Shown: positions 9,830 through 31,318 of the stretch, in pieces
How positions within the stretch are numbered: position 1 is the first letter of the stretch
How the letters are laid out: every line of letters begins with the position of its first letter
Source of the DNA: Patescibacteria group bacterium
Lineage (GTDB): Bacteria > Patescibacteriota > Patescibacteriia > JBDRGY01
Assembly (NCBI GenBank): GCA_043817315.1
Contig: JBDRGY010000004.1
Coordinates: forward strand, 64,797 to 128,796
DNA: 64,000 nt
Reading direction: 5' to 3'
Made by a program: the position numbers and the translations under genes
Notes under the pieces: generated by a model
Told to the model about the DNA's origin: nothing
Database searches by the model: none
What the model saw: only the letters and a program-made list of their open reading frames with translations

Positions 9830-9834
9830 AACTT

Positions 9835-12948: not shown

Positions 12949-12967
12949 AAGTAATATATTGGAAGAC

Positions 12968-15004: not shown

Positions 15005-15023
15005 GTAGAAATATTTTTTAGAG

Positions 15024-15050
15024 GACGGGGCTTTGGCCCCGTCTTTTTAT
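15024..15050 (+). terminator. Rho-independent terminator
   Basis: The sequence gacggggctttggccccgtc is followed by TTTTT. Confidence 0.6.
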
Positions 15051-15115
15051 TGTCCTTTGTTTTCTTAAAGGGGGGTTGCTATATATTTAAGGTGTCATTA
15101 AACTTGAACAAAACT

Positions 15116-15553
15116 ATGGAGACTATCCAAAGAATCGTTGTGGCCGGAATCTTGATCGAGCAAGGGAAAATACTATTAGTCCATCGAGTTGGAAGCCAAA
15201 GCAGCTATCCTGGTAGCTGGGAACTGCCCTCTGGGGAAAAACAAGCAAACGAGGACTGTTTCAATTGCCTGGTCAGGAAGATTCGTAAGGAAGTGGGAAT
15301 AAGTGCCTACGTGGATCGGCCTGTCTCCGTCTTTGATTACCAGATGGAGAGAGGAGATACCAGGATCAAAACCACCCAGATTAATTTTTTGACCAAGAGA
15401 GTTGATAGCCGCCAGCACATCAGGCTAAGTAGTGTCTACCGGCAATATAAGTATTTTGACAGAGATGAATTAGATCGCTGCCAGATTAACCCGGCCATAA
15501 AAAATGTTTTGACTATCACTTTTGATAATCTAGCCAATCCAGCTCGGGTCTAA
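15116..15553 (+). CDS. NUDIX hydrolase
   Basis: The Nudix box reads SGEKQANEDCFNCLVRKIRKEVGI. The reading frame is open from 15050, but the first plausible ATG that gives a domain-sized protein is at 15116. Confidence 0.6.
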   Translation: METIQRIVVAGILIEQGKILLVHRVGSQSSYPGSWELPSGEKQANEDCFNCLVRKIRKEVGISAYVDRPVSVFDYQMERGDTRIKTTQINFLTKRVDSRQHIRLSSVYRQYKYFDRDELDRCQINPAIKNVLTITFDNLANPARV

Positions 15554-15555
15554 TT

Positions 15556-15590
15556 GAAAAAAGCCCAACGGAAGCCGCGGCTTTTTTTAT
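15556..15590 (+). terminator. Rho-independent terminator
   Basis: aaaaaagcccaacggaagccgcggcttttttt. Confidence 0.6.
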
Positions 15591-15653
15591 TGACAACAAA
15601 ACATGGTATATGATAAGTTAAGCAACTAGTCAATATGGTTCTTTAACAAGGAG

Positions 15654-16223
15654 GTGAAAGTGTTCCGTGATCGAAGAGATGTCTGGTACTTCATCAAGGA
15701 TCGGCCCACTATCTGGCTGCCGCCGCTCTTCGCCGTCTGGTCGGTTTTCCTGATGTGCGGTTTTATCGGTTTCTTCGTGCACCGGGAATTCGTCCAGACA
15801 GGTGGACAGGAGAACTTCCTGGGAATCCTCCTCCCCATTTTCGCAGTCATTCTGGGTCTACTCTTCATCTGTGGTTTGATTGGCATGATGCAAGGGGACC
15901 ACATCGCAGTTGGAGCTACGGGCGGCCTGGCCGTAACAATTGGTATGCTGGTTGCCGTGGTCAGTCCGTTCATCTCATGGTACATACTGCGTTTGCTGGC
16001 CCCGGGGCTGCTCAACTTGCCGATTTTGCAGGCCTTGAACTTCCAGTTCCACGAGGCCCCGTATCGCATCTTCGGTAATGTCGGCATTACCGGCTTGTAC
16101 GCAGCCATGATAGTCGGGCCCTACTTCGCCTTCAGCTTGGTCAGCATACCGGTTCATCTGTTGGTCGAACGTTTCCAGCAACGGCGTATTGCCAGTTCAT
16201 CCCTTCAGCCCGCCAAAGCTTAA
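15654..16223 (+). CDS. GC-rich integral membrane protein, hypothetical
   Basis: 189 aa with about 5 TM helices. It uses a GTG start with an AAGGAGGTG ribosome-binding site. The GC content is markedly higher than in neighbouring genes. It is flanked by terminators, including cccgccaa/ttggcggg plus a T-run at 16208-16241. Confidence 0.5.
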   Translation: MKVFRDRRDVWYFIKDRPTIWLPPLFAVWSVFLMCGFIGFFVHREFVQTGGQENFLGILLPIFAVILGLLFICGLIGMMQGDHIAVGATGGLAVTIGMLVAVVSPFISWYILRLLAPGLLNLPILQALNFQFHEAPYRIFGNVGITGLYAAMIVGPYFAFSLVSIPVHLLVERFQQRRIASSSLQPAKA

Positions 16224-16311
16224 ACCCTTGGCGGGTTTTTTAATCTCTTGATTTTTACTAATTATAGTGGTAAGTTGGGGGGAGACGGGAGAAAATAACA
16301 GCGCCAAAGTC

Positions 16312-16977
16312 ATGGATATTAAAAGTATAATATCACTGGTTATAGGTATTTTGATGGCAATAGTCGGCCTATATGTTTTTATCAGGAATCCGAAAGCTAG
16401 GATTAACAAGGCTTTCGGTTTTTTAGTTTTAATATTAGTTCTCTGGGTTGCTGGCAATATTGTGACATCAGAAGTTAATGATGTTAAGATGGCTTCGATA
16501 TGGGCAAAGTACATTTTTAGTGTAGCTCTATTTTTACCGATCACTATAATATATTTTTCTTGGGTTTTTCCTTATGAATCAAAACAAGTTAAGAAACGAG
16601 ATGCATTTCTTTTATTGATACCAGTCGTTTTAGTATTTATTACTTTAACTACTAATTTTGTGGTGAAGGGTTTAGATGGGATTGGTTGGCATGCAAACAC
16701 GATATTCGGATCAGGTTTATATCTATATATATTAATATTCTTAGGATATTGGGTTTGGGCAATTGTCAATCTAGTTAATAAGTTAAATAAGTCAGATGGG
16801 ATTCACCGCTGGCAACTCAAAAACATACTTTGGGGGATTATCCCGACATCAGTCATTGGGATAGTGTCAAGTTTAATACTGCCTTTGTATGGAAATCAAA
16901 ATTTCATTTGGCTGACTTTAGCTGCCTTGTTTATTTTTATCTTTTTCACCAGTTACATAATTTTTAAAAAGCCGTGA
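16312..16977 (+). CDS. stand-alone 7TM sensor domain protein (histidine-kinase N-terminal 7TM-like)
   Basis: About 7 TM helices. It shares the DGIHRWQLK motif and overall architecture with the N-termini of the genes at 18417 and 23448. The frame is open from a GTG at 16267. Confidence 0.55.
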   Translation: MDIKSIISLVIGILMAIVGLYVFIRNPKARINKAFGFLVLILVLWVAGNIVTSEVNDVKMASIWAKYIFSVALFLPITIIYFSWVFPYESKQVKKRDAFLLLIPVVLVFITLTTNFVVKGLDGIGWHANTIFGSGLYLYILIFLGYWVWAIVNLVNKLNKSDGIHRWQLKNILWGIIPTSVIGIVSSLILPLYGNQNFIWLTLAALFIFIFFTSYIIFKKP

Positions 16978-18413
16978 TGCAAATTCAAGGAACAATTTTA
17001 TTATTTTTATCGGTGTTAGTTGCCCTGGCTTTATTTTTATTGGCCATCTTTGTTTTATGGAGGAATCCAAAGAGTAAAACGAATTTATTTTTTTCAATCT
17101 TTTGTTTTACGGTTACCCTTTGGACTGTTGCTAATTATTTCTCATTAAGCGTTGTGAGCCCAAGTTTAATGCTATTTTGGATAAGGGTGGTGATGGCGCT
17201 GGCCGTAATTCTAAGTATCTTATTCTTATTATTCATTAATACCTTTCCGTCATCGAAAATTCAATTAAGCAACAAAAAGTTATTCTCCTTGATATTTCTA
17301 GGAATATTAACAATCATTATATGTTTTACTCCTTTATTATTTAAGTCATTAAAATTGGTAGATGGTCAGAGAACTCCGGTGCCGGGTCTGGGAATATCAG
17401 TTTTTATTATAGTGGCTATAGGCTCAATAATTTACGGTTTTATTCTGTTAGTAATAAAATTTAGGAAAAGCATCGGTTTAAGGAAAGCTCAATTAAGATA
17501 TCTATTAGTTGGGTTTTTACTGATGTTCTTGCTTGTGCTGATATTTAATTTCGCATTTGTTGTATTTTTTGATAATCCAAGTTTCATAAGTCTCGGTCCA
17601 ATTTTTTCCCTACCCTTTATCATTCTTACAACTTTCGCTATTATCAAACACCGTTTGATGGGGATTAGACTGATCATCAGAAAAGGTATTATTTACACGG
17701 TAACTTTAATTGTTTCCTTGATAGTATATGTGGCTTTGATTTTCTTTTTACAATATGTGATTGAATCAACCACTACTATAAATGCTATGGTCATCAATTT
17801 TATGGCGGTTTTGATTATTGCTATTGGCTTTGAACCTCTGCGAAAGTGGCTTAGAAAAATTGTTGATAATATATTTTTTCCCGAGAGAAAAACACTACAG
17901 CAAAGTTTAGTCAGGATCAAGGAAGAATTACCCAAGAAAGTCAGTATTGTTAAGCTGTTTGACATTACAAAGCAAGAGATTATGAAAATTGTGCCGGTCT
18001 CCAATATCCAGTTTCAAATCTTGGACGGAAGAAAAGGGACCTACCAGGATTTAGATGGAAATAAAAAAACGATAGATTTGAGAATAAATAGTCCAATGAT
18101 AAAAATAATGATGGCCCAGAAAGATGTTCTTGTAAGAGAGGAATTAGTGATTCAGGCCGAAGAAAAATCAGAAGTTGAAAAAAAGGAGTTGGAAAAAATT
18201 GGTAAGATTTTAGATAAGTATAAAGTTGCATTAATTATTCCACTTGGTTTAGAAAAACCATCGGGTTTGGTTTTATGTGGCTATAAAAAATCAAAAGAAG
18301 CATTCACTTCTGATGATATTATTTTTATTAATACTTTAAGGACGCAGGCATCAATTGCATTAGAAAATGCCTTGCTATATAAACAAGCGGTGGAGCGGAT
18401 TAGGATAAAATAA
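16977..18413 (+). CDS. 7TM sensor domain plus GAF-like domain protein, no kinase domain
   Basis: 479 aa. The N-terminus MQIQGTILL is identical to the paralog at 18417. It has 7 TM helices and a GAF-like C-terminus ending ALENALLYKQAVERIR. It is a paralog of the N-terminal half of the histidine kinase at 23448. Confidence 0.65.
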   Translation: MQIQGTILLFLSVLVALALFLLAIFVLWRNPKSKTNLFFSIFCFTVTLWTVANYFSLSVVSPSLMLFWIRVVMALAVILSILFLLFINTFPSSKIQLSNKKLFSLIFLGILTIIICFTPLLFKSLKLVDGQRTPVPGLGISVFIIVAIGSIIYGFILLVIKFRKSIGLRKAQLRYLLVGFLLMFLLVLIFNFAFVVFFDNPSFISLGPIFSLPFIILTTFAIIKHRLMGIRLIIRKGIIYTVTLIVSLIVYVALIFFLQYVIESTTTINAMVINFMAVLIIAIGFEPLRKWLRKIVDNIFFPERKTLQQSLVRIKEELPKKVSIVKLFDITKQEIMKIVPVSNIQFQILDGRKGTYQDLDGNKKTIDLRINSPMIKIMMAQKDVLVREELVIQAEEKSEVEKKELEKIGKILDKYKVALIIPLGLEKPSGLVLCGYKKSKEAFTSDDIIFINTLRTQASIALENALLYKQAVERIRIK

Positions 18414-18416
18414 TTT

Positions 18417-19094
18417 ATGCAAATTCAAGGAACAATTTTATTGGTCATTGCCGGAATTGAATTGATTCTAGGTCTTTATCTTTTCTTCCGACATCCCAAG
18501 AACCATATCACCATTTCCTATTTTCTGTTTATTCTCGGTGTTGTCATTTGGGTTATATCCAATGGACTAGCAATTTTCAGAGGAGGTAGTGACATTGTTT
18601 GGTGGAAAATGACTTATGTGGGCGGAGCCTTACTTGCTAGTTCCTTTGTATATTTTGCTATGGTTTTTCCATATTCTAAAAAACAAATTTCAAAATGTCT
18701 AATTAGCTGTTTATATCTGCCAGCCATTTACTTTACAATAGTTCTTTTTTCAACCAATATATTAGTCGAGAGATTAATCAAGAAAGAGAATCAAATCTCT
18801 AACGTTACCTTGGGTCCGTTATATCACCTGTATGTTCTCTTCGTCGTTATTTTTTGCCTTTGGGGATTGTATTATTTATTTACCAAGTTCAAAACATCTG
18901 ACGGTATTCATCGTTGGCAATTAAAATATTTATTGTGGGGGATAGTTATTTCCTCAGTTGTGGCCGTAACCAGTGATTTGGTTATGCCGTTTTTCTCTGA
19001 AAACTATTTGATCAATTATCCCTGGGTTGGTTCGGGTTTTTCTATTGTTTGGCTATTCTTCACTAGTTATGTTGTGTTCAAGAAAGTGAATTGA
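18417..19094 (+). CDS. stand-alone 7TM sensor domain protein
   Basis: 225 aa. The first 27 nt (atgcaaattcaaggaacaattttattg) are almost identical to those of the gene at 16977. It contains the DGIHRWQLKYLLWG motif. Confidence 0.6.
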   Translation: MQIQGTILLVIAGIELILGLYLFFRHPKNHITISYFLFILGVVIWVISNGLAIFRGGSDIVWWKMTYVGGALLASSFVYFAMVFPYSKKQISKCLISCLYLPAIYFTIVLFSTNILVERLIKKENQISNVTLGPLYHLYVLFVVIFCLWGLYYLFTKFKTSDGIHRWQLKYLLWGIVISSVVAVTSDLVMPFFSENYLINYPWVGSGFSIVWLFFTSYVVFKKVN

Positions 19095-19308
19095 TTATTA
19101 TCTATTTTTGTGCTATAATAAAAGTGTCTTAAAAATATAAACAAAAGGGGGATCTTGCACTACTTGATGCAGGATAAAAACACAAACAAATGCCTTTTGT
19201 TTTTGTAACAATTGATTTAGATTTAATAATTAATTACGCTTCTGTTTGAGGTGTTTTTTTAATGATATTAATTATGAGTATTAGATATTAGTAAAATGAA
19301 ACAAAAAC

Positions 19309-20703
19309 ATGACTAATATGCTTCATTACAAAAGAATACTAGTGCTTGGCGGTAGTGGATTGGTTGGACGAAATATCATTGAGACTTTACTAGAGCAAAA
19401 AGTTTATCATCTTGGGGTAGTGGGACTGAAAGGTGAGTCAAACTGGAAAAATTTAGAAAAAATCGAGAAAGATAAAAAAATCAAAATCAATAAATATAGT
19501 GATGATTTATTAATGCCATCACAATTTGGACGATATTCTTTTAAAAAAAGAGAAACTCCAAAAAATATTGGCAATTTAGTTCGTCTACTCAAACAAGGAA
19601 TCCAAAAGAATGAGATCAGAAAAGAACCTTTATATAAAATCGTTCTTGATTTTCGCCCCGATTATATTATTGATAGCGTGAATACCGCCACGCACTGTGC
19701 CTACAACGAAATATCATCAAACATTGTAGAGGGTGTAGGGATTGGTTCTCTTTTACTGTTACGTTACTATCAAATTTTATACCACCTTTTACGTGATGAT
19801 TTTTGGAGAGAAGAAAAAAAGAAGATACGTATTTTAAAGTATATCAAGATAGGGACAACCGGCATCGGTGGGATGGGTTTAGACATCCCTTTTACTCATG
19901 GCGAAGAAAAACCATCTCTACCTTTATTAAAAAAGGTGGCAATGGCCGGTGCCCAGACAAACATTCTGCTTGCTATGCGTAACAGTCATGGAATCGCCAA
20001 TGTTCAGGAAATAATTCCCGCCACCTCTATTTTTCAGCTCTCTGGTTTTAATAATGATCATGGGGAGATAGACGGTGGTGAAAGTCAGGGCTATGCGCTT
20101 GAAGAATTTCGTTTATTAACCCAGCAAAGTCAGATGGGTCTCATTGATGTTAAAGAACTAGCTAAAATAATTGTAGACGCGTTGCAAAAAGAATATAATC
20201 GTCATGATGTTTTAGAAGCATTTAGGCGATCAGCTGTAACTAAATCAACTCTATCAGTCATGGTGCGCAATCGCGCACTTGAGACTTGGACGCAAGATCA
20301 AACCAAGCATGGAGCGTTAAGCGTGGCGCATGGCAATCTCGGACCGTGGCGGACACGGAAATTACTGTTTGAGCTTTTTATTCTACTAAATTGTTACCAT
20401 ACTAATAAAACTAACTTTTGGCGACTGTCAGCTCAAAAAATTCAAAAACACATCAAAACGGATCTTTCAAAAAATATTCCGTTACAAAAAGAAATAAAAC
20501 GATCAGGGTTACGCGTGTCAACTTCAGCTATGCGAGACCAAGTCGTTTCTGATAAACACATTGATTTGTCAACAATAAATATAACAAGATGGCGAAAGGC
20601 CTTGCAATCACTAGGGCTTAAGAATAAGCTTATATCTTTATACGCAGGTGATATATTGGCACAATTAATTGAACAACAACATGACCTTAACGCTATACCA
20701 TAA
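19309..20703 (+). CDS. NAD(P)-binding Rossmann-fold oxidoreductase-like protein
   Basis: 464 aa. It has an N-terminal GxxGxxG (ILVLGGSGLVGRNI) and an AT-rich composition. No finer family assignment is possible by eye. Confidence 0.45.
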   Translation: MTNMLHYKRILVLGGSGLVGRNIIETLLEQKVYHLGVVGLKGESNWKNLEKIEKDKKIKINKYSDDLLMPSQFGRYSFKKRETPKNIGNLVRLLKQGIQKNEIRKEPLYKIVLDFRPDYIIDSVNTATHCAYNEISSNIVEGVGIGSLLLLRYYQILYHLLRDDFWREEKKKIRILKYIKIGTTGIGGMGLDIPFTHGEEKPSLPLLKKVAMAGAQTNILLAMRNSHGIANVQEIIPATSIFQLSGFNNDHGEIDGGESQGYALEEFRLLTQQSQMGLIDVKELAKIIVDALQKEYNRHDVLEAFRRSAVTKSTLSVMVRNRALETWTQDQTKHGALSVAHGNLGPWRTRKLLFELFILLNCYHTNKTNFWRLSAQKIQKHIKTDLSKNIPLQKEIKRSGLRVSTSAMRDQVVSDKHIDLSTINITRWRKALQSLGLKNKLISLYAGDILAQLIEQQHDLNAIP

Positions 20704-20717
20704 AGACTATTTTACCT

Positions 20718-22301
20718 TTGCGGGATATGTTAAGTTTTACATCTATGACTAGTGATAGGAATATATTAAATTTGATTTATAGAAACTCATATAAGGATTT
20801 TATAAATTATTATAGCCTATCTTCGGATAGTTTTTTTAATCTGTTTGCAAAAGAATCACCCGAAAGAATTGAAGATCAAGGACAAAAAATGGCATTGAAG
20901 CTATTTCGTAAAGCCTCAAAACAAATTCCCTCTTATGCCAAGTTTTTAAGAGAAAATGGTGTCAACCCAAAAAATATTAAATCAATAAGAGACTTTAAGT
21001 CTTTACCTATAATCACCAAAAAAAATTATCTCAAGAAATACAACCTTAAAGATCTCAGCTGGGACGGGCTTTTTCAAGATTTGCATTTAGTTTCGGTAAG
21101 CTCTGGTTCAACAGGCGAACCATTTTTTTGGCCAAGGGGCTTGGGTTTGGAATATGAAACCGAGTTGGAGTACGAAATCATTCTTAAAAACATATTTGAA
21201 GCTGATAAAAAAAAGACCCTATTTATAATTGGCTATGCTATGGGAATGTATGTAGCGGGCGTCTTTACACTGAATAGTGTAATGAATTTAGTTAAAAAAG
21301 GATATCCTTTAACTATTGCAACCCCTGGCTCTGATAAAGATTCCATTTTACGTATTATTAGAAATCTTGGAGGTCATTTTGACCAAACTGTCATTGCGGC
21401 CTACCCCCCTGTCCTTAAAGACGTAATTGATAAAGGAGTTAAAGAGAATATTGAATGGAGGAAATACCATTTAAAATTTATTTCTGGCGGAGAAGGGTTT
21501 AGTGAAGAATTCAGAAAATATATTTACGAAAGGATTAGCGCAAAAAATTACTATAGAAGTTTTGTCAATACATATGGCAGTGCTGATGCGGCAATCTTGG
21601 GTCATGAAACGCCTTTATCAATATACATCAGAAAACTCGCTTCGGAAAATGAAAGTTTACGTAGGACTTTATTTAAAGATAACAGACTCCCTTCACTACT
21701 TCAGTATTACCCCCCATTTAAATATTTTGAAGAAGTTGACGGGAGTTTAATTCTTACTACGTACGGAGGAATCCCACTAATCAGATATTCTATCGGAGAC
21801 ACTGGTGGAAAAATTCCTTTTATTAAAATGAGTAATATACTTAAAAGCGCCGGCGTTGATATTGAAAAAGAGATGACCAGGTATGGATGTATGAACACTA
21901 TTACAAAATTACCTTTTGTTTATTTGTTTGGCAGAGCGGACAATACAAAAATATTTTATGGGGCAAATATATATCCGGAACATATTAAGAATTGTCTCGA
22001 GCAAAAAGATATAATTCACCAAGTTACGGGTAAATATTTCACTGATATTCTGTTTGACAAAAATCACAATCAGACTTTTTATATAGCCATTGAATTAGCC
22101 CACGGCGTGAGTATAAGTAACCAGTTAAAAGAAAAAATAGTGAATGTCATACACTATAACCTATTGGCTATTAATGATGAGTATAAATATCTCGCCCAAA
22201 CTATCGGCAAACGTATTTACCCATCGGTTGAAATATTTTCCTATGGTGACCAAAAATATTTTTTACCGAAAATAAAGCCACGATATGTCAAAAAGAATTA
22301 G
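20718..22301 (+). CDS. PaaK / coenzyme F390 synthetase-like adenylate-forming enzyme
   Basis: 527 aa. The N-terminal region (GVNPKNIKSIRDFKSLPIITKKNYLKKY, then SSGSTGEPFFWPR) matches the phenylacetate-CoA ligase family pattern (..GV.P..I.S..DL..LP...K..L, then SSGTTGKP). Confidence 0.6.
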   Translation: MRDMLSFTSMTSDRNILNLIYRNSYKDFINYYSLSSDSFFNLFAKESPERIEDQGQKMALKLFRKASKQIPSYAKFLRENGVNPKNIKSIRDFKSLPIITKKNYLKKYNLKDLSWDGLFQDLHLVSVSSGSTGEPFFWPRGLGLEYETELEYEIILKNIFEADKKKTLFIIGYAMGMYVAGVFTLNSVMNLVKKGYPLTIATPGSDKDSILRIIRNLGGHFDQTVIAAYPPVLKDVIDKGVKENIEWRKYHLKFISGGEGFSEEFRKYIYERISAKNYYRSFVNTYGSADAAILGHETPLSIYIRKLASENESLRRTLFKDNRLPSLLQYYPPFKYFEEVDGSLILTTYGGIPLIRYSIGDTGGKIPFIKMSNILKSAGVDIEKEMTRYGCMNTITKLPFVYLFGRADNTKIFYGANIYPEHIKNCLEQKDIIHQVTGKYFTDILFDKNHNQTFYIAIELAHGVSISNQLKEKIVNVIHYNLLAINDEYKYLAQTIGKRIYPSVEIFSYGDQKYFLPKIKPRYVKKN

Positions 22302-23448
22302 TACATATAAACCACTGATACTTAACCCGAAAAGCAAAGGGGGTCTCAGAAAGTTAGATAAGTTGCTTAAAACTGCAAATTTTGTAGTTGACGAAATTGA
22401 GGGCCAAATGACAGAACTTTTTCAAGTCCGTCATCCAAAAATTTTATTAAGCAAAATAACCAGATCCCAATTATTAGATTTTAAAAACTCATTTTATAAA
22501 GAGAGAGATAAAAAATTCTTTGGTTTTTGGGTATATTATCCTTGGAATAAACATCTCGTACATTTTTTGCACGAGGAACTACACACAGAAATCCGAACTT
22601 CTCGTAACAGAAATTTGATAACCAAAAATGAGCAAGATAAATTCTACAACGCGTCGATTGCTATAGCCGGTTTGAGCGTAGGCAATAGCTCGGTTGCCAC
22701 TCTGTTATACACAGGAGGGCCCAAGAATATGCGTTTGGCGGATCACGATCGTCTTGCTGCCTCGAATATTAATAGAATCAGAACCACTTTTACCAAAGTT
22801 GGCCAAAAGAAAACAGATATAGTAGCACAAGAAATTTATGAAGTCAATCCATACGCTAATTTAAAATTATATAGAAATGGGCTAAACATAAAGAACATTA
22901 GAGATTTTCTATTACAACCAAAACCAGTAGATGTTTTAATAGAAGAAATGGATAATCTCTTTCTAAAAATACAGATCAGACTTTTAGCCCGCAAGTATGG
23001 GATTCCTGTTATTATGGCGGCAGACAACGGAGATAATAATATATTAGATATTGAGAGGTTTGATCTGGAGCCTAACCAGCCCCTTTTGCACGGTGATGTC
23101 CCGGAAGAAGAATTATTAAAAATCACCCCAAATACATCAAAAGTCGACGCGGCAAGAATAATCTCTCGCTGGGTCCATCCCGAAAATGTTATGCCTAGAA
23201 TGCAAAGTTCCTTGTTAGAAATTGGAAACACGTTATTCACCTGGCCGCAACTTGGGAGCGCCGCTTTTCTTGCAGGATGCACCTTAGCGTATACGGCGAG
23301 GAAAATAATTTTGGGCGAGCCAATAAAGCATGGTAAATATGTTATTTCTTTGGATGATATTATAAATCCAGAGTATAAATCGGACAGTTTCCTGCGCAAA
23401 AGAGAGAATCAAACGGAAAAGTTTAAAAAAGCATTAAATTTGAACTAA
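22285..23448 (+). CDS. ThiF/MoeB/E1-like adenylyltransferase family protein
   Basis: 387 aa. The nucleotide-binding pattern IAIAGLSVGNSSVATLLYTGG...L.D.D....SNINRI is typical of the ThiF/HesA family. The start overlaps the previous gene by 17 nt. Confidence 0.6.
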   Translation: MSKRISTYKPLILNPKSKGGLRKLDKLLKTANFVVDEIEGQMTELFQVRHPKILLSKITRSQLLDFKNSFYKERDKKFFGFWVYYPWNKHLVHFLHEELHTEIRTSRNRNLITKNEQDKFYNASIAIAGLSVGNSSVATLLYTGGPKNMRLADHDRLAASNINRIRTTFTKVGQKKTDIVAQEIYEVNPYANLKLYRNGLNIKNIRDFLLQPKPVDVLIEEMDNLFLKIQIRLLARKYGIPVIMAADNGDNNILDIERFDLEPNQPLLHGDVPEEELLKITPNTSKVDAARIISRWVHPENVMPRMQSSLLEIGNTLFTWPQLGSAAFLAGCTLAYTARKIILGEPIKHGKYVISLDDIINPEYKSDSFLRKRENQTEKFKKALNLN

Positions 23449-26255
23449 TGGATTTATATATTCTCATTATCATAGGCGTTGTAAATATCTTATTGGGGTT
23501 ACGTGTATTAATTAATAATTCCCGGTCGGCTACCAATAAACTCTTCTTTCTATTTATCTGTATTACCATTGCCTGGTCGACTGCAAATTATATCGCAACG
23601 TCTTATCTAAATGTACTAAACGTTGAGCAGTCAATTTTTTGGGTACGTTTGACCATGTTCTTTGCCGTACCACAAGCAGTGTCATTTTTCTTCTTAGTGC
23701 ATACTTTTCCCGAATCAAGGATGGTATTGAAGAAAAAATATTTCTTCGGCCTAATCTTTTTCGCCACCGTTACGATGATAGTTGCTCTTTCACCATTCTT
23801 ATTTGTATCTGTCGCTATCCAAGATGGCACTGCAACTCCAAATCCCGGTCCAGGCATGGCTCTTTTTCTTCCCGTCGCAGTGGGATCTGTTATCGCTGGG
23901 TTAATTAAACTAATCAAAAAATATATTAGAGCTTCGAGCTTAGAGAAAATTCAGTTACGGTATATTTTTCTTGGCCTATTTTTTATGTTCTTATTAATAC
24001 TCACATTCAATTTTGGCTTCGTTGTATTTTTAAAGGACATATCTTTTGTAACTTTCGCCCCTCTCTTTACTCTACCGTTTCTTGTCACAATTTTTTACGC
24101 CATCACGCGCCACCGCTTCCTAGACATCCGCGTCATCATTTCCCGTTCCATTATCTACTTCTTCCTAGTCCTAGCTGTCACCTTTGCTTTCTCCGGCACT
24201 ATCTTTGTTTTCGGCGCTTACTTTCAAGGAGTCCTGGGCGGAAATGCTATTCTGACCTCTCTGGCTGTCTCTCTCATCATTGTCCTAGGATTAGAACCAC
24301 TAAAAAGATTTCTGGGCAAAGTGACTGATAGAATTTTCTTTAAGAGTGCAGTGGATTACGGTGTAGTTCTAAAGAAATTGTCGGAAATTTCTTCGCGGGA
24401 AATCGATATCTACAAATTAGTCCGTTCGACTAACAAGAACCTTAATGAATTGCTGAAAATCAGCAGGTCATTGATTATTTTGGAAAACAAGAGTGGTCAT
24501 TTCGAAGCTAAGGAAAAAGTGTATCTGGATGAATATATTATTTTGAAGAAAAACGGGCCCTTGATTTCCTATATCAAGAAAGATAAATCCTTGATTATTC
24601 TGGAAGAATTGGATCGGGAAATATCGGACATGGCTGACGAGAGGAAAAGAGCAGTTCTGGAGAAAGTCAGAGAAGAGATGGAAAAATATCAAATTGACGC
24701 TTGCGTACCCATTACCGCCCAGGACAAGATGAACGCCATTTTGATCTTGGGCCGTAAGCTGTCCGGTGATACTTATTCCAGTGAAGACATTAAATTGCTC
24801 GATGTCTTATCACCGCAAGTCGGATCCGCTATTGAAAAAGCCAAATTGTACGACGAGGTCAAGAGCTTCGGCTTGCGGATGAGAGAAGAAGTGAAGAAAG
24901 CAACCGGGGATTTGCGCCAGGCCAATATCGCTTTGCAGGAGAGAAACCGGTTCTTGACCGCTTTGCAGAAAATCTCCAACATGGTTTCCCATACCTTGGA
25001 TTTTGATAAAGTAACCCAAAACATCGTTGATGCCATTGCCAAAGAAGTTGGTTTTATTGGCGGACTGCTGCTGATGATCGATAAAGAAAATGATCGGATC
25101 TACCCCCAAGCTCTGACCCAGTCTTCCTTGACCAAACAGGTCTTAAAGATTATACCAAAGCCTTTTAGAGAGTATTATTCCAAGTTTTCGACTGATAAAA
25201 CAATAGATGCCATGGCTGCCAAAACCGGCCGCATCAAAATCGGCAGTGGTTTTGAGCAGTTTATCTCACCACCCCTTCCCAAACCGGTTTGTTATGCAGT
25301 CAATAAGATGTTAAAAGTTAAAAGTATCGTGGCTGTGCCCATTTTCTCAGAGAATGAGGTGATTGGAATCATTGATTTCGTTTTAGCCAAGGAAGAGGGT
25401 GAAATTTCCCAACAAGAAATCGAAATGATGAAAGCGATTGCTGACCAAACAGGTATCGTAGCCAGTAACTTGCGTTTGTTTGAACAGATACAGAAAGCCA
25501 ATAACGAATTAGAGAAAGTCAATAAACACTTATTGCAGCTGGATAAAGCCAAGTCCGAGTTTATTTCCATTGCTTCCCATCAGTTAAGAACTCCCATGAC
25601 CGGGATTATGGGCTATCTGTCCATGTTAACTTCTGGCGATTTTGGCAAGATTGATCCCAAGATCAGTGGAATTCTGGCTGATTTATTAAAAGCCTCAAAG
25701 CGAATGATCCGTTTGATCAACCTTTTCTTGAATGTTTCCAGGATTGAGGCTGGTCGTTTTACCCTAGACCTGGCCAAAATCGATATGGTAAACTTGATTG
25801 ACACCGAGATTAAAGAAGTTATCAACATTGCCAAAGAAAAAGGATTGAAGCTGATTTTCAAAAAACCGGTTAAACAAATACCACCCGTAATGGCTGATGA
25901 ATCTAAGGTAGCTGATATAATCTTGAACTTAGTCGATAACGCAATCAAGTATACCCCCAAAGGTAACATCACAGTGACCATTGATCGTTATTATGATGAT
26001 AAAGTGATAGTCAGGGTCAAAGATACCGGCATGGGTATTGATACCGATGAGGCCCATAAGCTGTTTGGTAAGTTTGCCCGCGGGGAGGGGATGGCCAGAG
26101 TCAATCCTGACGGATCGGGCCTGGGCTTGTTTATTGCCAAGCGTGTAGTAGAAGCTCATGACGGAAATATCTGGGCCGAATCAGAGGGCCAGGATAAAGG
26201 ATCAACTTTTCAATTTATTTTACCAATCGATGGACCCAAAAATAAAAAGTTCTAA
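23448..26255 (+). CDS. sensor histidine kinase (7TM, GAF, HisKA, HATPase_c)
   Basis: 935 aa. It has a 7TM N-terminus, a coiled coil, an H-box (SIASHQLRTPMTGIMGY), an N-box (LVDNAIKYT), and G-boxes (DTGMGID, GSGLGLFIAKRVV). Confidence 0.85.
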   Translation: MDLYILIIIGVVNILLGLRVLINNSRSATNKLFFLFICITIAWSTANYIATSYLNVLNVEQSIFWVRLTMFFAVPQAVSFFFLVHTFPESRMVLKKKYFFGLIFFATVTMIVALSPFLFVSVAIQDGTATPNPGPGMALFLPVAVGSVIAGLIKLIKKYIRASSLEKIQLRYIFLGLFFMFLLILTFNFGFVVFLKDISFVTFAPLFTLPFLVTIFYAITRHRFLDIRVIISRSIIYFFLVLAVTFAFSGTIFVFGAYFQGVLGGNAILTSLAVSLIIVLGLEPLKRFLGKVTDRIFFKSAVDYGVVLKKLSEISSREIDIYKLVRSTNKNLNELLKISRSLIILENKSGHFEAKEKVYLDEYIILKKNGPLISYIKKDKSLIILEELDREISDMADERKRAVLEKVREEMEKYQIDACVPITAQDKMNAILILGRKLSGDTYSSEDIKLLDVLSPQVGSAIEKAKLYDEVKSFGLRMREEVKKATGDLRQANIALQERNRFLTALQKISNMVSHTLDFDKVTQNIVDAIAKEVGFIGGLLLMIDKENDRIYPQALTQSSLTKQVLKIIPKPFREYYSKFSTDKTIDAMAAKTGRIKIGSGFEQFISPPLPKPVCYAVNKMLKVKSIVAVPIFSENEVIGIIDFVLAKEEGEISQQEIEMMKAIADQTGIVASNLRLFEQIQKANNELEKVNKHLLQLDKAKSEFISIASHQLRTPMTGIMGYLSMLTSGDFGKIDPKISGILADLLKASKRMIRLINLFLNVSRIEAGRFTLDLAKIDMVNLIDTEIKEVINIAKEKGLKLIFKKPVKQIPPVMADESKVADIILNLVDNAIKYTPKGNITVTIDRYYDDKVIVRVKDTGMGIDTDEAHKLFGKFARGEGMARVNPDGSGLGLFIAKRVVEAHDGNIWAESEGQDKGSTFQFILPIDGPKNKKF

Positions 26256-26655
26256 AAAGAGATCAATTTTAATCGTGGAAGATGAACAGATTATTGCTGA
26301 CATGTATGTCAGGGTGTTTGAGATGAGGCCCTTCAAAGCTTTTGTGGCTAGAAATTATGAAGAAGGCTTGGCACTGTTTGAGAAGGTTTTTCCGTCGTTT
26401 GTCTTGTTGGATTTGTTATTACCACAGCAAGGTGCGATTGAAGCCGATTATGCAGGTGAACCAGTGGGACTTACTTTGCTTCGGAAGATCAGACAGCACC
26501 CCGAAGGGCAGGACACTACAGTTATTGTACTTACCAATTTGGCCCAAGATCTTCACAAAAAGCAGGCGATGAATCTGGGAGCAGATCTGTATTTGGTTAA
26601 AGCAGAAATTGAGCCTGTGCAGTTAGTAAAGAGAGTTGACTCTTTGGCCAGATAG
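26230..26655 (+). CDS. single-domain response regulator (receiver only)
   Basis: A receiver fold is present: ILIVEDEQ, the phospho-acceptor region FVLLDLLLP, and TVIVLTNL. There is no output domain. The start overlaps the histidine kinase stop by 26 nt. Confidence 0.65.
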   Translation: MDPKIKSSKKRSILIVEDEQIIADMYVRVFEMRPFKAFVARNYEEGLALFEKVFPSFVLLDLLLPQQGAIEADYAGEPVGLTLLRKIRQHPEGQDTTVIVLTNLAQDLHKKQAMNLGADLYLVKAEIEPVQLVKRVDSLAR

Positions 26656-26670: not shown

Positions 26671-27657
26671 ATGACACGGGGGAAATTCTACGAATTTTTA
26701 AATAAACTTAGGAAGGATTTTTTGTTAATCGGCCCCAAAAAAGAAAGGGGCGATTTATTTTTTTCCAAGTTGAATACAGCAAAAGAATTTGCCTTAACCG
26801 ACGAATTTCCTTTTTATCCGCCCAAAAAGTATTTAGTACCTCAAGCTGAGGTGCTTTTTGAGTTCCAGGGACATAAGTTGAAAGAAGTGCTGCCGGTAGT
26901 TAAAAATCAGATCCTGCTGGGGATTAACCTGACTGATTTAAAGGCAGTGATGCTATACGACCAGGTATTTGAAAAAGACCCCTATTATCAAAAAAGGCAG
27001 CAGGAAACAGTTATTACCGGGCAAACAGTCTTACCGGTAGAAAAAGGAACAGCCAATATCTTTGGTGAAAAACTGGAGGAGGATGTCTTGGAACATCTAA
27101 AGTTTGATATCCTTTTCGGAAAGCATAAAGATAAAATTAAATTCTTCACCGGTTCAGAGCAAGGACAGAATATCCTGGATAAATACAAAGTAAAGGATTA
27201 CCAGCACGTAAATTTCCAGGGACCGATTCCGGAACAGGGAGTAGCCGCCAAGGCGATAGCTGATTATAAAAAAGTGAAAAATTCGGCTGCGGCCAATGTC
27301 TGGGAAGAGTTGGGTAAAAAATGTATTGCCTGCGGCAAGTGCACCACGGTCTGTCCTACTTGCTTTTGTTTCCAAATCCTTGATAAGCCTTGTACTCAAC
27401 CCAACACTGGATTACGCTGCCGGGAATGGGATTCCTGTTTTTACAATAATTTTTCCAGGATAGCAGATGATCAAAAATTCCTGAAGTCAGTCAATGAGAG
27501 AATCTATTTTTGGTACCAACATAAATTTGTACGTATTCCTGAAGACTATCAATTTACCGTGCCAGGTTGTATCGGTTGTGGTCGTTGTATTAAAGTCTGC
27601 CCAGTGGGCATTGATATAAAAAAAGTGTTAGACAGTCTGAAACGATATGAAAAATAA
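26671..27657 (+). CDS. hydrogenase/sulfhydrogenase beta-type Fe-S subunit (2x[4Fe-4S]; AsrA/HydB-like)
   Basis: It has two ferredoxin-type Cys clusters, CIACGKCTTVCPTCFC and CIGCGRCIKVCP. It is linked to the gamma, delta and alpha subunits downstream. Confidence 0.6.
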   Translation: MTRGKFYEFLNKLRKDFLLIGPKKERGDLFFSKLNTAKEFALTDEFPFYPPKKYLVPQAEVLFEFQGHKLKEVLPVVKNQILLGINLTDLKAVMLYDQVFEKDPYYQKRQQETVITGQTVLPVEKGTANIFGEKLEEDVLEHLKFDILFGKHKDKIKFFTGSEQGQNILDKYKVKDYQHVNFQGPIPEQGVAAKAIADYKKVKNSAAANVWEELGKKCIACGKCTTVCPTCFCFQILDKPCTQPNTGLRCREWDSCFYNNFSRIADDQKFLKSVNERIYFWYQHKFVRIPEDYQFTVPGCIGCGRCIKVCPVGIDIKKVLDSLKRYEK

Positions 27658-28474
27658 TTACCAAACTAAAGAAGCCAAAATAGTGGATATCAAACCAGAA
27701 GCACCTGGTCTTAACATGTACACTTTACAGTTAATATCGGCGGCCGAACGCAATTCATTCCGCTTTGACCACGGTCAGTTTATGGAATTCAGCTTGCCGG
27801 GTTATGGCGAATCACCGTTTGATGTTTGTTCTACCCAGGAAATTATTAAAAAGAAACTGATCCAAGTTTGCGTTCGTAAGGTAGGTAGAGTTACTGAAAG
27901 GATTCACCAGCTAAAAAAAGGCGATTTAGTGGGGATACGCGGACCATACGGTTACGGTTGGCCTACTATTTCCCAATTGAAAAAGAAAAATGTCTTGGTG
28001 ATTGGCGGTGGCATCGGTTTGATCCCCATGCGCTCAATTGTCGAAGAATTATGCGGACAGCCCGACTGGAAAAAGAAACTGACAGTTTTTTATGGGGCGC
28101 GTAACACCAAGGAATTTATTTTTAAGGACAGGTATAAGTATTGGAAACAGCACTCTGACTTAAGAATCACCATTGATTGCCAAGAAAAAGCCTGGGCCGG
28201 CTGTACCGGAGTAATCACAGTTTTGTTCGACCAATGCGAAGTTAATGAAGATACCTATGCCTTAGTTTGCGGACCGCCTATCATGTTTAAGTTCGTTTTA
28301 GCCAAATTGAAAAAGGCTCGCCTCCCCGAAAAAAACATTTTTCTTTCTCTGGAACGCCGCATGGATTGCGGAGTCGGTATTTGCCAGCACTGTGCTATTG
28401 GTCCCTATTATGTCTGTAAAGACGGACCGGTGTTTCGCTACGACAAAATTAAGAACATAGGAGGAGCTATTTAA
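27647..28474 (+). CDS. hydrogenase gamma-type FAD/NAD(P)-binding subunit with C-terminal [2Fe-2S] (PyrK/HydG-like)
   Basis: 275 aa. It has an FAD-binding beta barrel (RFDHGQFMEF), an NAD-binding motif (VLVIGGGIGLIPM), and a C-terminal CGVGICQHC...C cluster. Confidence 0.65.
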   Translation: MKNNYQTKEAKIVDIKPEAPGLNMYTLQLISAAERNSFRFDHGQFMEFSLPGYGESPFDVCSTQEIIKKKLIQVCVRKVGRVTERIHQLKKGDLVGIRGPYGYGWPTISQLKKKNVLVIGGGIGLIPMRSIVEELCGQPDWKKKLTVFYGARNTKEFIFKDRYKYWKQHSDLRITIDCQEKAWAGCTGVITVLFDQCEVNEDTYALVCGPPIMFKFVLAKLKKARLPEKNIFLSLERRMDCGVGICQHCAIGPYYVCKDGPVFRYDKIKNIGGAI

Positions 28475-28475
28475 A

Positions 28476-28676
28476 ATGTGTTTAGTCATACCCTCACAAG
28501 TAAAAAAAATAAATGAGAAACTAGCGGTTGTTGATCACCAGGGCCAGGAGAAAACGGTTCAGGCCGATTTGGTTAAAGTAAAAGTAGGGGATTGGGTATT
28601 TACCCAGGCCGGGTTTATCGTTAAAAAATTATCAAAATCAGAAGCATTAAAAACATTGGAGTATTATGAAAAATAA
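28476..28676 (+). CDS. hypC: hydrogenase maturation chaperone HypC/HupF family
   Basis: 66 aa. The MCLVIPSQV N-terminus is the hallmark MCL[AG]IP of HypC. Confidence 0.7.
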   Translation: MCLVIPSQVKKINEKLAVVDHQGQEKTVQADLVKVKVGDWVFTQAGFIVKKLSKSEALKTLEYYEK

Positions 28677-29562
28677 AGGTCTTATCTTAGTCTTAACCAC
28701 GGCGATCATCTCCGGCTTTTCTATTTACTTCAACAAGTTTGCCATCAAGATGAATTCACCGTATATTTTTGCCGGTTTGAAAAATCTAATAGTGGGCATA
28801 TTTTTTATCGCCTTGACCACAGGGGTCGGTCAATTAGTGGAATTCCGTAAATTGAAGAAGCAAGATTGGTTAAAGCTTGTACTGATCGGCTTGATCGGCG
28901 GTTCCATTCCCTTTCTGCTATTTTTTCAAGGCCTATCCATGACCACAGCTGCTTCAGCCTCATTTATTCACAAAACAATGTTTCTATGGGTGGGGTTGCT
29001 GGCCATTTGGTTTCTAAAAGAGAAATTAAACAAGAATCTGTGGATAGCCATCCTGTCCATCTTGGTCGGTAACGTCTTGCTGCTCAAGATGCAAAATATC
29101 AGTTTAAACTGGGGCGATGGTTTAATTTTGTTGGCCACTTTATTTTGGGCCGCGGAGATCACTTATTCTAAAAAAGTACTTACCAAGTTATCACCCAGAA
29201 TGGTCAGCTTTGGCCGCATGTTCTTCGGCAGTTTGTTTATTCTGGCCTTTTTGGCAGTCACTGGCCAACTAACTTTAATTGGCAGCTTAAGTACGGCTCA
29301 ATGGGGTTGGGTGATGTTTACCTCGGTGTTTTTAATCGGCTACGTGGGTACTTTTTATCACGGTTTGAAATGGGTCAAAGCTTCTACAGCTACTGCCATT
29401 TTAGCCTTGGGTGCGCCCATTACAGCAGTCTTACAGGCTATCTTCAGCCACCAAATATTGATAAACATGCAGTGGCTGGGCCTGGGTCTGATCGGTTTAG
29501 GTACAGCCTTTTTTATTGTTCAACAAATTAAGACAAACGGATGGAAGTTACCCAACAACTAA
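28666..29562 (+). CDS. EamA-family (DMT superfamily) transporter
   Basis: 298 aa with about 10 TM helices arranged as two EamA-like repeats. Confidence 0.65.
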   Translation: MKNKGLILVLTTAIISGFSIYFNKFAIKMNSPYIFAGLKNLIVGIFFIALTTGVGQLVEFRKLKKQDWLKLVLIGLIGGSIPFLLFFQGLSMTTAASASFIHKTMFLWVGLLAIWFLKEKLNKNLWIAILSILVGNVLLLKMQNISLNWGDGLILLATLFWAAEITYSKKVLTKLSPRMVSFGRMFFGSLFILAFLAVTGQLTLIGSLSTAQWGWVMFTSVFLIGYVGTFYHGLKWVKASTATAILALGAPITAVLQAIFSHQILINMQWLGLGLIGLGTAFFIVQQIKTNGWKLPNN

Positions 29563-30317
29563 TTAAAAATTTAGCCCGAGCGCGTCTATCCGCTTATCCG
29601 AATTTTGAAAAGATTGAACTGGATCCTGCGGCAATGGTTATTTTAACCCGTTTGTTTTTGAATCCCGACTGCATTTCCGACATTGATTTGGGGAAGCTAA
29701 CCACCCAAGCCACTGTTAAGTTGTGTGATTTAGCCAAGCATATTGTAACAGCCGCACCGGTGACCATTGCCCAATACTGCGAGCAACACAACAAGTTGCT
29801 GGTAACGGAAAAAGACATGATTCTCTGTTTCGGTTTGGATCATATTGATTCGGTTTTTAGGAACAAAGTGCATGAGTCGGACAATCCCCAAGTGGCTCTG
29901 GCCCACATCCTGACTGCCGGCAAAGTAAAATCAATTAAAAAAAATTTAGTAACCATGATTGTTCAGCTGGGTGAAGAAAAATCAGTCGAGCTGAAAAATG
30001 TCCTGATTCCCCGGGAGCTGACTATCAAAAAAGGCCAGACAGTTTGGCAGCATTACGGGGTGGTCATCGAAAAAGCGGAAGGCGATCTGGCGGAACAAGT
30101 CCGTTTTGGCCAGAAAGAAATCGGCTATTTCCAGAAAATACTGGGCCAAAACAACAAGAAAGTGATTGATTTCTCCGACCGTTCCATTTTCCAAAAAGAT
30201 CTTATTGGCGCTATTTTGTCCGAAGAAAGAGCCCTCAAGGCCAAAAAAAGTTTCAATGCCAAAAAGAAATTGGTTACCAATATTGATAAAGATATTAAGT
30301 TTGCCCAAGATGCCTAA
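29541..30317 (+). CDS. hypothetical protein
   Basis: 258 aa, soluble. It overlaps both neighbours. No motif was recognised. Confidence 0.4.
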   Translation: MEVTQQLIKNLARARLSAYPNFEKIELDPAAMVILTRLFLNPDCISDIDLGKLTTQATVKLCDLAKHIVTAAPVTIAQYCEQHNKLLVTEKDMILCFGLDHIDSVFRNKVHESDNPQVALAHILTAGKVKSIKKNLVTMIVQLGEEKSVELKNVLIPRELTIKKGQTVWQHYGVVIEKAEGDLAEQVRFGQKEIGYFQKILGQNNKKVIDFSDRSIFQKDLIGAILSEERALKAKKSFNAKKKLVTNIDKDIKFAQDA

Positions 30318-31098
30318 GAAGAAACCAGTTGTTGCCCTAGTCTCTCTATCCTGTTGCGAAGGATGTCTCTTTGCTATCTTCGATTTGCACGAGAGGTTTT
30401 TCAGTTTAGTCAAAGACTACGCCGAGATAGGGGAGTCGCAAATTACCCGCGAAACTTTCGGTAAAGGACCGTATGACATTGCTATCGTGGAAGGCACTCC
30501 CATTACCAAAGGCAACATCCAAGTTCTCAAAGAAGTCAGAAAACGTTCTAAAATATTAATTGCTTTGGGTGATTGTGCCACTCATGGTTGTGTTCAGTCT
30601 ATAAAAAACTACGTTGATAAAGAAAAAGCCATTAAGCACGTTTATAAAGACAGAAAGGGCATTGATAACCCGGATATCAAACCGATTAAAGACTTTGTTA
30701 AAGTAGATTATGAAATCCTGGGTTGCCCGGTTAACGCCGAAGAATTTATGGAAGCCTTCTTAGAATTAAGAGAAGGCCGGATGCCCAAGGCCCCAACCCC
30801 GCGTTCGGTTTGTTATGAATGCCAGGAAAGAGAAATTGAGTGTCTATTACAGCAAGGTGAAGCGTGTTTGGGTCCGGCTATCATTGGTGGCTGCGGTGCT
30901 ACTTGCCCCGAAGCCAAATATCGCTGCGAAGGCTGCCGCGGTGTGATCAAAGATAATCCAGGCTTACTAAATTTTGTTAAGCAACTGAAAAAAGTAGCTA
31001 CTCAAAAAGAGATAAATCATATATTAGAGAAGTTTGGGATTAGAAAAGAGTGGGAGGAAGAAATTAATAAAAGAAAGGAGAAAAAAAATGAAATATGA
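30310..31098 (+). CDS. [NiFe]-hydrogenase small (delta) subunit, group-3-like
   Basis: The NuoB-like N-terminus VALVSLSCCEGC is followed by distal Fe-S cysteines CYECQ...C....C and CGATCPEAKYRCEGC. The frame is open from 30166, but the ATG at 30310 gives the expected N-terminus. Confidence 0.7.
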   Translation: MPKKKPVVALVSLSCCEGCLFAIFDLHERFFSLVKDYAEIGESQITRETFGKGPYDIAIVEGTPITKGNIQVLKEVRKRSKILIALGDCATHGCVQSIKNYVDKEKAIKHVYKDRKGIDNPDIKPIKDFVKVDYEILGCPVNAEEFMEAFLELREGRMPKAPTPRSVCYECQEREIECLLQQGEACLGPAIIGGCGATCPEAKYRCEGCRGVIKDNPGLLNFVKQLKKVATQKEINHILEKFGIRKEWEEEINKRKEKKNEI

Positions 31099-31303: not shown

Positions 31304-31318
31304 TTAATTTCTTATTTT

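Follow-up and report, generated by a model that had tools for sequence, protein, structure and literature searches.

What do three enzyme genes make in the middle of a row of sensor genes, and do they belong with the sensors or did they land there by chance? The question arises in a 64,000-nucleotide stretch of a Patescibacteria group bacterium genome (assembly GCA_043817315.1, contig JBDRGY010000004.1, positions 64,797 to 128,796), called the window below. In it, genes for a short-chain dehydrogenase/reductase (SDR)-type reductase (RED), a PaaK-like ligase and a ThiF-like enzyme stand between paralogs of a seven-transmembrane (7TM) sensor domain and a full-length 7TM histidine kinase. A sequence-only reading had described the three genes as an AT-rich island inserted into the paralog cluster, reminiscent of peptide or small-molecule tagging chemistry. 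The three co-directional genes are present with the enzyme classes and motifs that it named, their position between the 7TM paralogs and the kinase is borne out (HisKA_7TM E-values of 5e-15 to 7e-14), and its idea of an uncharacterised system for adenylation-driven modification of small molecules is supported. The locus would be best described as a variant of the oxazolone-type ThiF-cyclase pathway that Patescibacteria have kept and that is transcribed together with a 7TM sensor kinase. We lean, without strong confidence, towards the view that the three genes supply the biosynthetic enzymes of a conserved Patescibacteria operon that makes an oxazolone-type molecule and is tied to the sensor kinase. 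Gene order and its conservation, gene fusions, family assignments and the lack of features of E1 enzymes or of RiPPs (peptides made on the ribosome and modified after translation) are direct observations.

The ThiF-like enzyme matches the NCBIfam model NF005901 ("Rv1355c family") with E = 4.6e-90 (302.8 bits, profile positions 7-349 of 722). The next-best family reaches 65.7 bits, and the ThiF, MoeB, TcdA and Uba models all score at most 66 bits. TrzS, which is Rv1355c of M. tuberculosis, has been demonstrated experimentally to be an ATP-dependent cyclase and flavin oxidase that makes N-acyl tryptazolones, and its Asp217 is needed for cyclisation (PMC12856293). The adenylation residues of the ThiF-like enzyme are invariant in 22 family members (GLSxG, D153/D155, N161/N163/R164, K176 and, in an EEMDN motif, D223), and by the general order of E1 motifs D223 would be the counterpart of Asp217 in TrzS. 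These results suggest that the ThiF-like enzyme is the equivalent of the N-terminal cyclase half of TrzS/Rv1355c. A nitroreductase-superfamily protein of ~340 aa (FDO) is encoded near the enzymes in 14 of 29 related loci; it scores 257.6 bits against NF047509 (Acg/Rv3131 family, cutoff 199) and aligns with positions 366-652 of the Rv1355c profile. Because the ThiF-like enzyme covers positions 7-349 of that profile and FDO positions 366-652, FDO is probably the missing half of TrzS, and the Patescibacteria genes would represent a split form of the TrzS fusion. Cyclase and oxidase are separate genes in tyzB-tyzC of M. tuberculosis (PMC10404671).

Conservation was assessed by an alignment scan of species-representative genomes with the PaaK-like protein, which returned 398 relatives. 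The best 80 loci and five from an exact look-up were analysed, and the conservation counts given here rest on about 29 loci of Patescibacteria type. In 23-24 of these, PaaK-like and ThiF-like are neighbours, whichever of them comes first, and 20 of 21 adjacent pairs have gaps of -53 to +14 nt. Of the 29 loci, 26 also have a homologous 7TM kinase, usually directly downstream of the enzyme pair; where ThiF-like and kinase adjoin directly, the gap is -7 to +78 nt in 8 of 9 cases, and in 8 related loci the kinase is followed by a homologous receiver. The enzyme pair has no partner more constant than the full-length kinase, so the kinase genes are not a mere landing site. Other partners vary: RED-like genes are present in 8-9 loci, often divergent and upstream, class I/II aminotransferases in 7, ELFV amino-acid dehydrogenases in 4 and S-adenosylmethionine (SAM)-dependent methyltransferases in 4-5. 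FDO without RED occurs in 12 loci, RED without FDO in 6 and both in 2. Because RED and FDO tend to be alternatives, the product of the RED-type loci, the window among them, may be saturated or cyclised in another way. Across 22 loci, the pairwise protein distances of PaaK, ThiF and kinase show a correlation (Mantel r = 0.41-0.65, P = 0.0005), which fits inheritance as a unit and owes part of its strength to common species history.

Several relatives show rearranged or altered copies of the module. In one relative at 75% identity (L001, positions 6560-17184) it occurs twice in tandem, in the order RED-PaaK-ThiF, a 62-aa RED C-terminal remnant (59% identity to RED of the window), methyltransferase, second PaaK-ThiF pair, kinase and receiver. 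The second pair is 43% and 40% identical, and the tandem speaks for an enzyme pair that was duplicated and has diverged. In L003, RED (6485-7967) and the kinase (10710-13699) are each divided into two open reading frames (ORFs), which could reflect decay of the module or assembly frameshifts. In L089, the opposite strand just downstream of the kinase carries a gene of the Trp_repressor family and a weakly matching GNAT gene (14459-15554). Together with a ScyB-like (tryptophan dehydrogenase-like) partner elsewhere, the repressor gene gives a faint hint of a connection to tryptophan.

The PaaK-like protein has no Pfam domain at threshold. Its structure model (predicted local distance difference test score 86.8) has the two-domain ANL fold of PaaK type, and Foldseek places it nearest to BT_0428 (E = 2e-22) and PaaK1 (4e-21), with target-normalised TM-scores of 0.6-0.73. 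The top matches are BT_0428, PaaK1/2, the 2-hydroxyisobutyryl-CoA ligase HCL, AjiA1, 6siy (NatL2-type) and ClxA, at 14-19% identity. The core motifs SSGSTGEP, YGSADA, IGD and GRxD and the C-terminal Lys are invariant. These features point to a PaaK-family adenylate-forming ligase of an uncharacterised subfamily, which comprises 577 clusters at 50% identity (E ≤ 1e-30, search of 1.84 billion representatives). Three of the nearest solved structures, NatL2, AjiA1 and ClxA of benzoxazole pathways, share this fold; they show that a CoA-independent enzyme of this kind can turn the acyl-adenylate directly into an amide or ester, in routes that lead to a heterocycle (PMC7204872, PMC9400959, PMC12519233). 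Unlike them, PaaK-like, which is 14-16% identical to them and about 80 residues longer, has a ThiF-like cyclase and not an amidohydrolase as its partner.

Four gene fusions are among the PaaK-like matches listed. P0388 (PaaK-like + ThiF-like) is a singleton. P0418 (ThiF-like + PaaK-like), P0496 (ScyB-like amino-acid dehydrogenase + PaaK-like) and P0392 (dehydrogenase + PaaK-like + ThiF-like) all lie beside FDO and a 7TM kinase. P0392 and P0496 are real genes, since the first is identical in two independent assemblies and the second is carried on nine contigs. The three fusions examined for context (P0392, P0418 and P0496) share the gene order FDO, fusion, alpha/beta-hydrolase, 7TM kinase. In our view, nothing speaks more strongly than the fusions for a single pathway of dehydrogenase, ligase and ThiF-like cyclase. 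In each of these three lineages the hydrolase, of ~290 aa, separates the enzymes from the kinase (L090 10732-11607, L092 9839-10711 and L093 7681-8556). Its best families are meta-cleavage-product hydrolases and enol-lactonases, all below cutoff, and it could open or recycle the heterocycle.

What the enzymes act on, what they make and which way the link to the kinase runs are inferred as follows. The operon would run from a promoter through RED, PaaK-like, ThiF-like and the 7TM/GAF histidine kinase to the receiver. RED, which has the NAD(P)-binding SDR ketoreductase fold and a family-specific helical C-terminal domain, would reduce an amino-acid-derived 2-oxo acid to its 2-hydroxy form; the 2-oxo acid would come, in sister loci, from an aminotransferase or from a ScyB-like dehydrogenase that is sometimes fused to the ligase. 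PaaK-like would adenylate the acid and join an amine, in all likelihood an amino acid, directly to it, to give an intermediate of N-acyl-amino-acid type, and would thereby stand in for the acyl-CoA-dependent N-acyltransferase (OxzA/TyzA/TrzA). ThiF-like would then adenylate the free carboxylate and cyclise the intermediate to an oxazolone-type heterocycle, a 2-hydroxyacyl substrate possibly giving a related ring, and in sister loci an Acg/FDO-type flavin oxidase would desaturate the ring. The co-transcribed 7TM kinase would either sense the labile product, as in a synthase-receptor pair, or control its production. A PDB sequence search with RED gave no match, and the neighbourhoods of its distant homologues in Thermoanaerobaculia and WOR-3 were uninformative.

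The first descriptions of ThiF-like enzymes with small-molecule substrates date from 2021, and a 2025 review names oxazolone formation as their only validated non-RiPP example. Like OxzAB of Pseudoalteromonas rubra and TyzACB and TrzAS of M. tuberculosis, the Patescibacteria loci have the ThiF-like cyclase half, and the sister loci adjoin a ~340-aa oxidase of the FDO subgroup as in tyzB-tyzC. An acyl-CoA-dependent N-acyltransferase accompanies every described oxazolone system, whereas no acyltransferase family was found among the conserved neighbours of the 29 loci or the scanned neighbours in the window (TyzA is known as a hypothetical protein). Here a PaaK-family ligase is the obligate partner, sometimes fused, and the Patescibacteria loci add an SDR reductase, an aminotransferase or dehydrogenase and a methyltransferase, in varying combination, and a 7TM kinase in the operon; the window itself has the reductase and no flavin oxidase. 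In the oxazolone literature searched, neither a PaaK-like partner nor a link to a kinase was found, and the module was not found in the literature on quorum sensing in the Candidate Phyla Radiation (CPR). The indolmycin route, which leads through a transaminase, the C-methyltransferase Ind1, the ketoreductase Ind2 and ATP-dependent coupling by Ind3 to an oxazolinone ring, offers another parallel. Together, the Patescibacteria loci hold an aminotransferase or dehydrogenase, a SAM methyltransferase, a reductase with a precomputed match to the Ind2-named domain PF27054 and an ATP-dependent ligase, and an O,N-heterocycle is the proposed product. They differ from the indolmycin route in having no arginine-oxidising Ind4/5/6 genes and in that ring closure is assigned to the ThiF-like enzyme; homology to Ind2 is a precomputed Pfam match only, and the ligase is likened to Ind3 by enzyme type.

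The features of the locus are listed in Table 1. Every gene of the window lies on the plus strand. The overlapping stops and starts of the sequence-only reading hold for PaaK-like/ThiF-like (17 nt) and for ThiF-like/kinase (1 nt), and RED and PaaK-like are separated by a gap of 41 nt. PaaK-like and RED are 100% identical to public proteins of Patescibacteria group bacterium metagenome-assembled genomes. The identical public PaaK-like protein, P0001, has 518 aa, which places the start at the ATG at 20745, and an exact look-up of the 527-aa product of the TTG start was without match. The receiver ORF overlaps the 3′ end of the kinase gene.

Table 1. Features of the enzyme and sensor locus, in window coordinates
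Feature	Position	Strand	Length and evidence
7TM-only paralog of kinase sensor domain	16267-16977	+	236 aa; HisKA_7TM 7e-14; no kinase domain
7TM + partial GAF paralog	16974-18413	+	479 aa; HisKA_7TM 6e-14, GAF_3 1e-3; no kinase core
7TM-only paralog	18417-19094	+	225 aa; HisKA_7TM 5e-15
Promoter-like site, TTGATT-17-TATAAT + TG extension	19091-19119	+	consensus match only
AT-rich leader 5′ of RED	19095-19308	+	214 nt; 23.8% GC; non-coding
RED, SDR-type reductase, motif LGGSGLVG	19309-20703	+	464 aa
PaaK-like ligase, motif SSGSTGEPFFWPR	20745-22301	+	518 aa; alternative TTG start 20718 = 527 aa
ThiF-like enzyme	22285-23448	+	387 aa; Pfam ThiF 6e-18
Full-length sensor histidine kinase, 7TM-GAF-GAF-HisKA-HATPase_c	23448-26255	+	935 aa; Pfam domains
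Receiver-only response regulator	ORF 26158-26655	+	Pfam Response_reg 5.5e-15; probable start ATG 26230

The promoter-like site has the best score within 15.5-27 kb, with 10 of 12 matches to the consensus. Its extended -10 element (TGnTAnAAT) can be aligned between the window, L003 and L089 and is the only part of the leader sequence that is conserved in relatives. The leader fold has a z-score of -2.8 against shuffled controls, and no Rfam match to a riboswitch or other leader RNA was found in it. No plus-strand ORF of at least 20 aa is present in the leader, where a short substrate ORF had been suspected. The leader had been called almost pure A/T; its GC content is indeed low, but similar to that of the intergenic region 31099-31318 of the window (24.1%). 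A terminator-like hairpin followed by a T-run lies at 19236-19254, between the promoter-like site and the start codon of RED, and may be a lineage-specific attenuator.

The three kinase-less 7TM paralogs are diverse. The paralog at 16267 is 35% identical to that at 18417 and 20-25% identical to the others. The paralog at 16974-18413, with a probable start at ATG 16977, aligns to the first ~500 residues of the full-length kinase, and kinase-less paralogs similar to it are found in L003 and L089. The first 26 nt of two paralogs (16977-17002 and 18417-18442; ATGCAAATTCAAGGAACAATTTTATT, encoding MQIQGTILL) are 100% identical, and the proteins are about 25% identical overall. The shared 26 nt could have arisen by local gene conversion or could be a common translation-initiation or regulatory element.

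Two alternatives concern the chemistry of the enzymes. The ThiF-like enzyme might activate a peptide, a ubiquitin-like protein or a sulfur carrier in the manner of E1 enzymes or MccB, with the other adenylating enzyme and the reductase as tailoring functions. It has the ThiF/E1 Rossmann adenylation domain and the conserved ATP and Mg motifs of ThiF/MoeB, Uba, MccB and Cap2, and weak PDB similarity to MccB (4e-5) and Uba4; a PADLOC search for anti-phage defence gave only generic E1 Rossmann similarity, with models of Cap2-type E1-E2 systems reaching at most 39 bits. Unlike those proteins, it has no catalytic Cys, zinc CxxC or ubiquitin-like, ThiS-like or precursor partner: the 22-member alignment holds no invariant or near-invariant Cys and no CxxC, and the window protein has one non-conserved Cys. 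Small ORFs ending in GG number 10 of 2203 across the 29 loci and are all unconserved or antisense. No conserved small ORF of 30-110 aa was found outside the large genes of these loci (peptides shorter than 20-30 aa are not covered), the recurrent clusters being antisense shadows of large genes, and no JAB peptidase or ubiquitin-like or ThiS-like family is among the conserved neighbours. Thus, the co-occurring small peptides, JAB peptidases and sulfur-carrier proteins that the sequence-only reading had in mind are not conserved in the 29 loci, and its analogy to MccB-type or ubiquitin-like activation fails. The TrzS match lies about 240 bits above any E1, ThiF or MoeB family, whose scores are 4 to 20 times below that of Rv1355c. 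We regard tagging as largely refuted by these comparisons and as highly improbable. An equally slim chance attaches to aromatic-acid catabolism, in which PaaK-like would be a true phenylacetate or aryl-CoA ligase, RED an accessory reductase, and ThiF-like an enzyme for thiamine, molybdopterin or tRNA (TcdA-type). The public annotation of PaaK-like as a "phenylacetate--CoA ligase family protein" and its fold, nearest to PaaK and BT_0428, agree with such a role. However, PaaK-like scores 53.5 bits against the PaaK equivalog NF041878 (cutoff 700) and 48.3 bits against TIGR02155 (cutoff 646.3), no paa genes are among the conserved neighbours of the 29 loci or the neighbours in the window, the ThiF, MoeB and TcdA models score 21-65 bits as compared with 303 for Rv1355c, and ligase and ThiF-like enzyme are fused into single polypeptides.

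Two further alternatives concern the relation of the enzymes to the kinases. The three genes could be a recent genomic island inside an older cluster of sensor paralogs and functionally unrelated to the kinases, which we consider very improbable. The enzymes have GC contents of 0.33-0.37 and a GC content at third codon positions (GC3) of 0.30-0.35, but the three upstream 7TM paralogs are equally AT-rich (GC 0.32-0.35, GC3 0.33-0.35; P = 0.4, Mann-Whitney test). The true low-GC block consists of six genes (16267-23448) and includes the three truncated paralogs; its GC3 is lower than that of the other 47 genes (0.44 ± 0.07; P = 0.0002, Mann-Whitney test), and a run of six low-GC3 genes is not expected by chance (P = 0.0009, permutation test). 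The three-gene AT-rich island is therefore correct in its low GC3 and in its downstream boundary at the kinase, whose GC3 of 0.46 is at background level, and wrong in its upstream boundary: the six-gene block is compositionally distinct, and the three-gene segment is not distinct from its upstream flank. The module lies below its flanks in GC3 in relatives too (window, 0.30-0.35 vs 0.44; L003, 0.24-0.29 vs 0.43-0.50; L005, 0.40 vs 0.51-0.55), which could mean transfer among Patescibacteria. Yet L003, with PaaK 64% and ThiF 69% identical, keeps the order 7TM, RED, PaaK, ThiF, kinase and then Fer4, FAD-binding, EamA and a 280-aa gene, although the flanking genes are 34-55% identical, and its GC3 dips over the same genes as in the window. 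L089 keeps the layout 7TM - RED - PaaK - ThiF - GAF-kinase at 37% RED identity. Because these relatives keep the layout at low identity, and L003 the GC3 dip as well, the arrangement and its composition are probably old and a recent insertion is not supported. No tRNA and no repeats bounding the block were found, no integrase is among the neighbour genes scanned (Pfam/NCBIfam), and the kinase partner in 26 of 29 loci likewise argues against an island. With the gene order recurring in relatives whose RED is 37-64% identical, the insertion or horizontal acquisition proposed earlier is not borne out. The other alternative keeps the same pathway but makes its product an effector, that is, an antimicrobial or a membrane or stress-protective metabolite, and the kinase a regulator of expression that responds to another cue. 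N-acyl tyrosine derivatives of Stieleria are antimicrobial, antibiotics induce oxazolone production in Proteobacteria (PMC12856293; bioRxiv 10.1101/2020.06.11.147165), and tryptazolones are enriched in cell pellets and not in supernatants (PMC12856293). Two-component regulators often adjoin biosynthetic clusters. A receiver without DNA-binding output is unusual for a simple pathway-specific transcription switch, and a kinase that is the most constant neighbour and often translationally coupled would be more usual in a synthase-receptor pair; neither argument settles the matter, and we hold an effector role to be possible, if on the unlikely side.

Several observations weigh against the oxazolone-operon reading. 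The NF005901 score of the ThiF-like enzyme is under the full-length cutoff of 476 bits, as only half of the profile is present, and the Ind2-named C-terminal domain of RED (PF27054) is known from a precomputed Pfam match only. No FDO, aminotransferase or amino-acid dehydrogenase is found in the 64-kb window (FDO by tblastn with Patescibacteria FDO); compared with the known oxazolone systems, the local pathway is incomplete, or a different product is made. The ScyB-like dehydrogenase scores ~265 bits against a cutoff of 600, so its amino-acid specificity is not assigned. Stand-alone PaaK-like homologues of 38-43% identity occur at about 55 loci in Methylococcales, Xenococcaceae (cyanobacteria), Chloroflexia, Chthonomonadales, actinomycetes and others, where no conserved neighbour other than shadow ORFs was found. 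Because such homologues occur, PaaK-like activity probably does not require a ThiF partner and may be that of a CoA ligase. The Mantel correlation could reflect species phylogeny alone, and three loci (L006, L007 and L012, titled, e.g., "uncultured Gammaproteobacteria") were grouped with Patescibacteria by similarity and context only. As for the regulatory logic, the response regulator has no output domain.

With these points in mind, we still favor a functional link between synthase and sensor, given that no other partner of the enzymes is as constant as the kinase and that its gene is often translationally coupled to theirs. LuxM-LuxN, CqsA-CqsS and LqsA-LqsS are pairs of an autoinducer synthase and a membrane histidine-kinase receptor. 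The Patescibacteria loci resemble them in that the genes for making a small labile molecule adjoin those of a polytopic sensor kinase and a receiver and are transcribed with them. Apart from a sub-threshold match of one 7TM paralog to LuxN (E = 0.002), there is no homology between the proteins, and the likeness is one of gene arrangement. The locus might go further and be a self-contained signaling unit, in which amino-acid-derived acids yield a labile oxazolone-type autoinducer, the 7TM-GAF kinase is its receptor and the kinase-less 7TM paralogs are extra or decoy receptors; we put this forward tentatively and think it doubtful.

Some neighboring features of the window are worth recording. 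The gene directly upstream of the low-GC block (15654-16223) is the most GC-rich of the window (GC 0.546, GC3 0.684, about +3.4 SD) and encodes a 189-aa hydrophobic protein without Pfam or NCBIfam match. Its compositional contrast makes it a better candidate for horizontal transfer than the three-gene segment. Downstream of the receiver, 26671-31098 carries genes for Fer4_22, NAD/FAD-binding DHODB-type, EamA transporter and sulfhydrogenase delta-like proteins (ShyD 158 bits, below cutoff), and looks like a cluster for a hydrogenase or sulfhydrogenase of group 3b type; L003 shares the order of the first four genes. The bacterial RNase P RNA of class A at 61594-62072 (184 bits) is 479 nt long as compared with 367 positions of the model and probably carries insertions. 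The 1.75 kb upstream of it (59840-61593) is GC-rich, at about 0.51, and has no plus-strand ORF of at least 120 aa.

If the proposed pathway is right, the locus and its about 30 relatives would be a second, widespread architecture for oxazolone-type ThiF chemistry. A PaaK-family ATP-dependent ligase in place of an acyl-CoA-dependent N-acyltransferase may suit a minimal CoA and lipid metabolism. The PaaK-like family, with about 600 clusters (50% identity) and now annotated as "phenylacetate-CoA ligase family protein", would gain a working function. The physiological role of oxazolones has been called unresolved, and signaling has been raised as a possibility (PMC12856293; bioRxiv 10.1101/2020.06.11.147165; PMC10404671). 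The constant pairing with a 7TM kinase leads to the testable hypothesis that the heterocycles are signals, which bears on how genome-reduced, host-dependent Patescibacteria communicate. If the autoinducer reading is true, the locus would be the first lineage-specific synthase-receptor system in ultra-small, host-dependent bacteria, and it would provide a physiological role for oxazolones, a major unresolved question in the M. tuberculosis literature.

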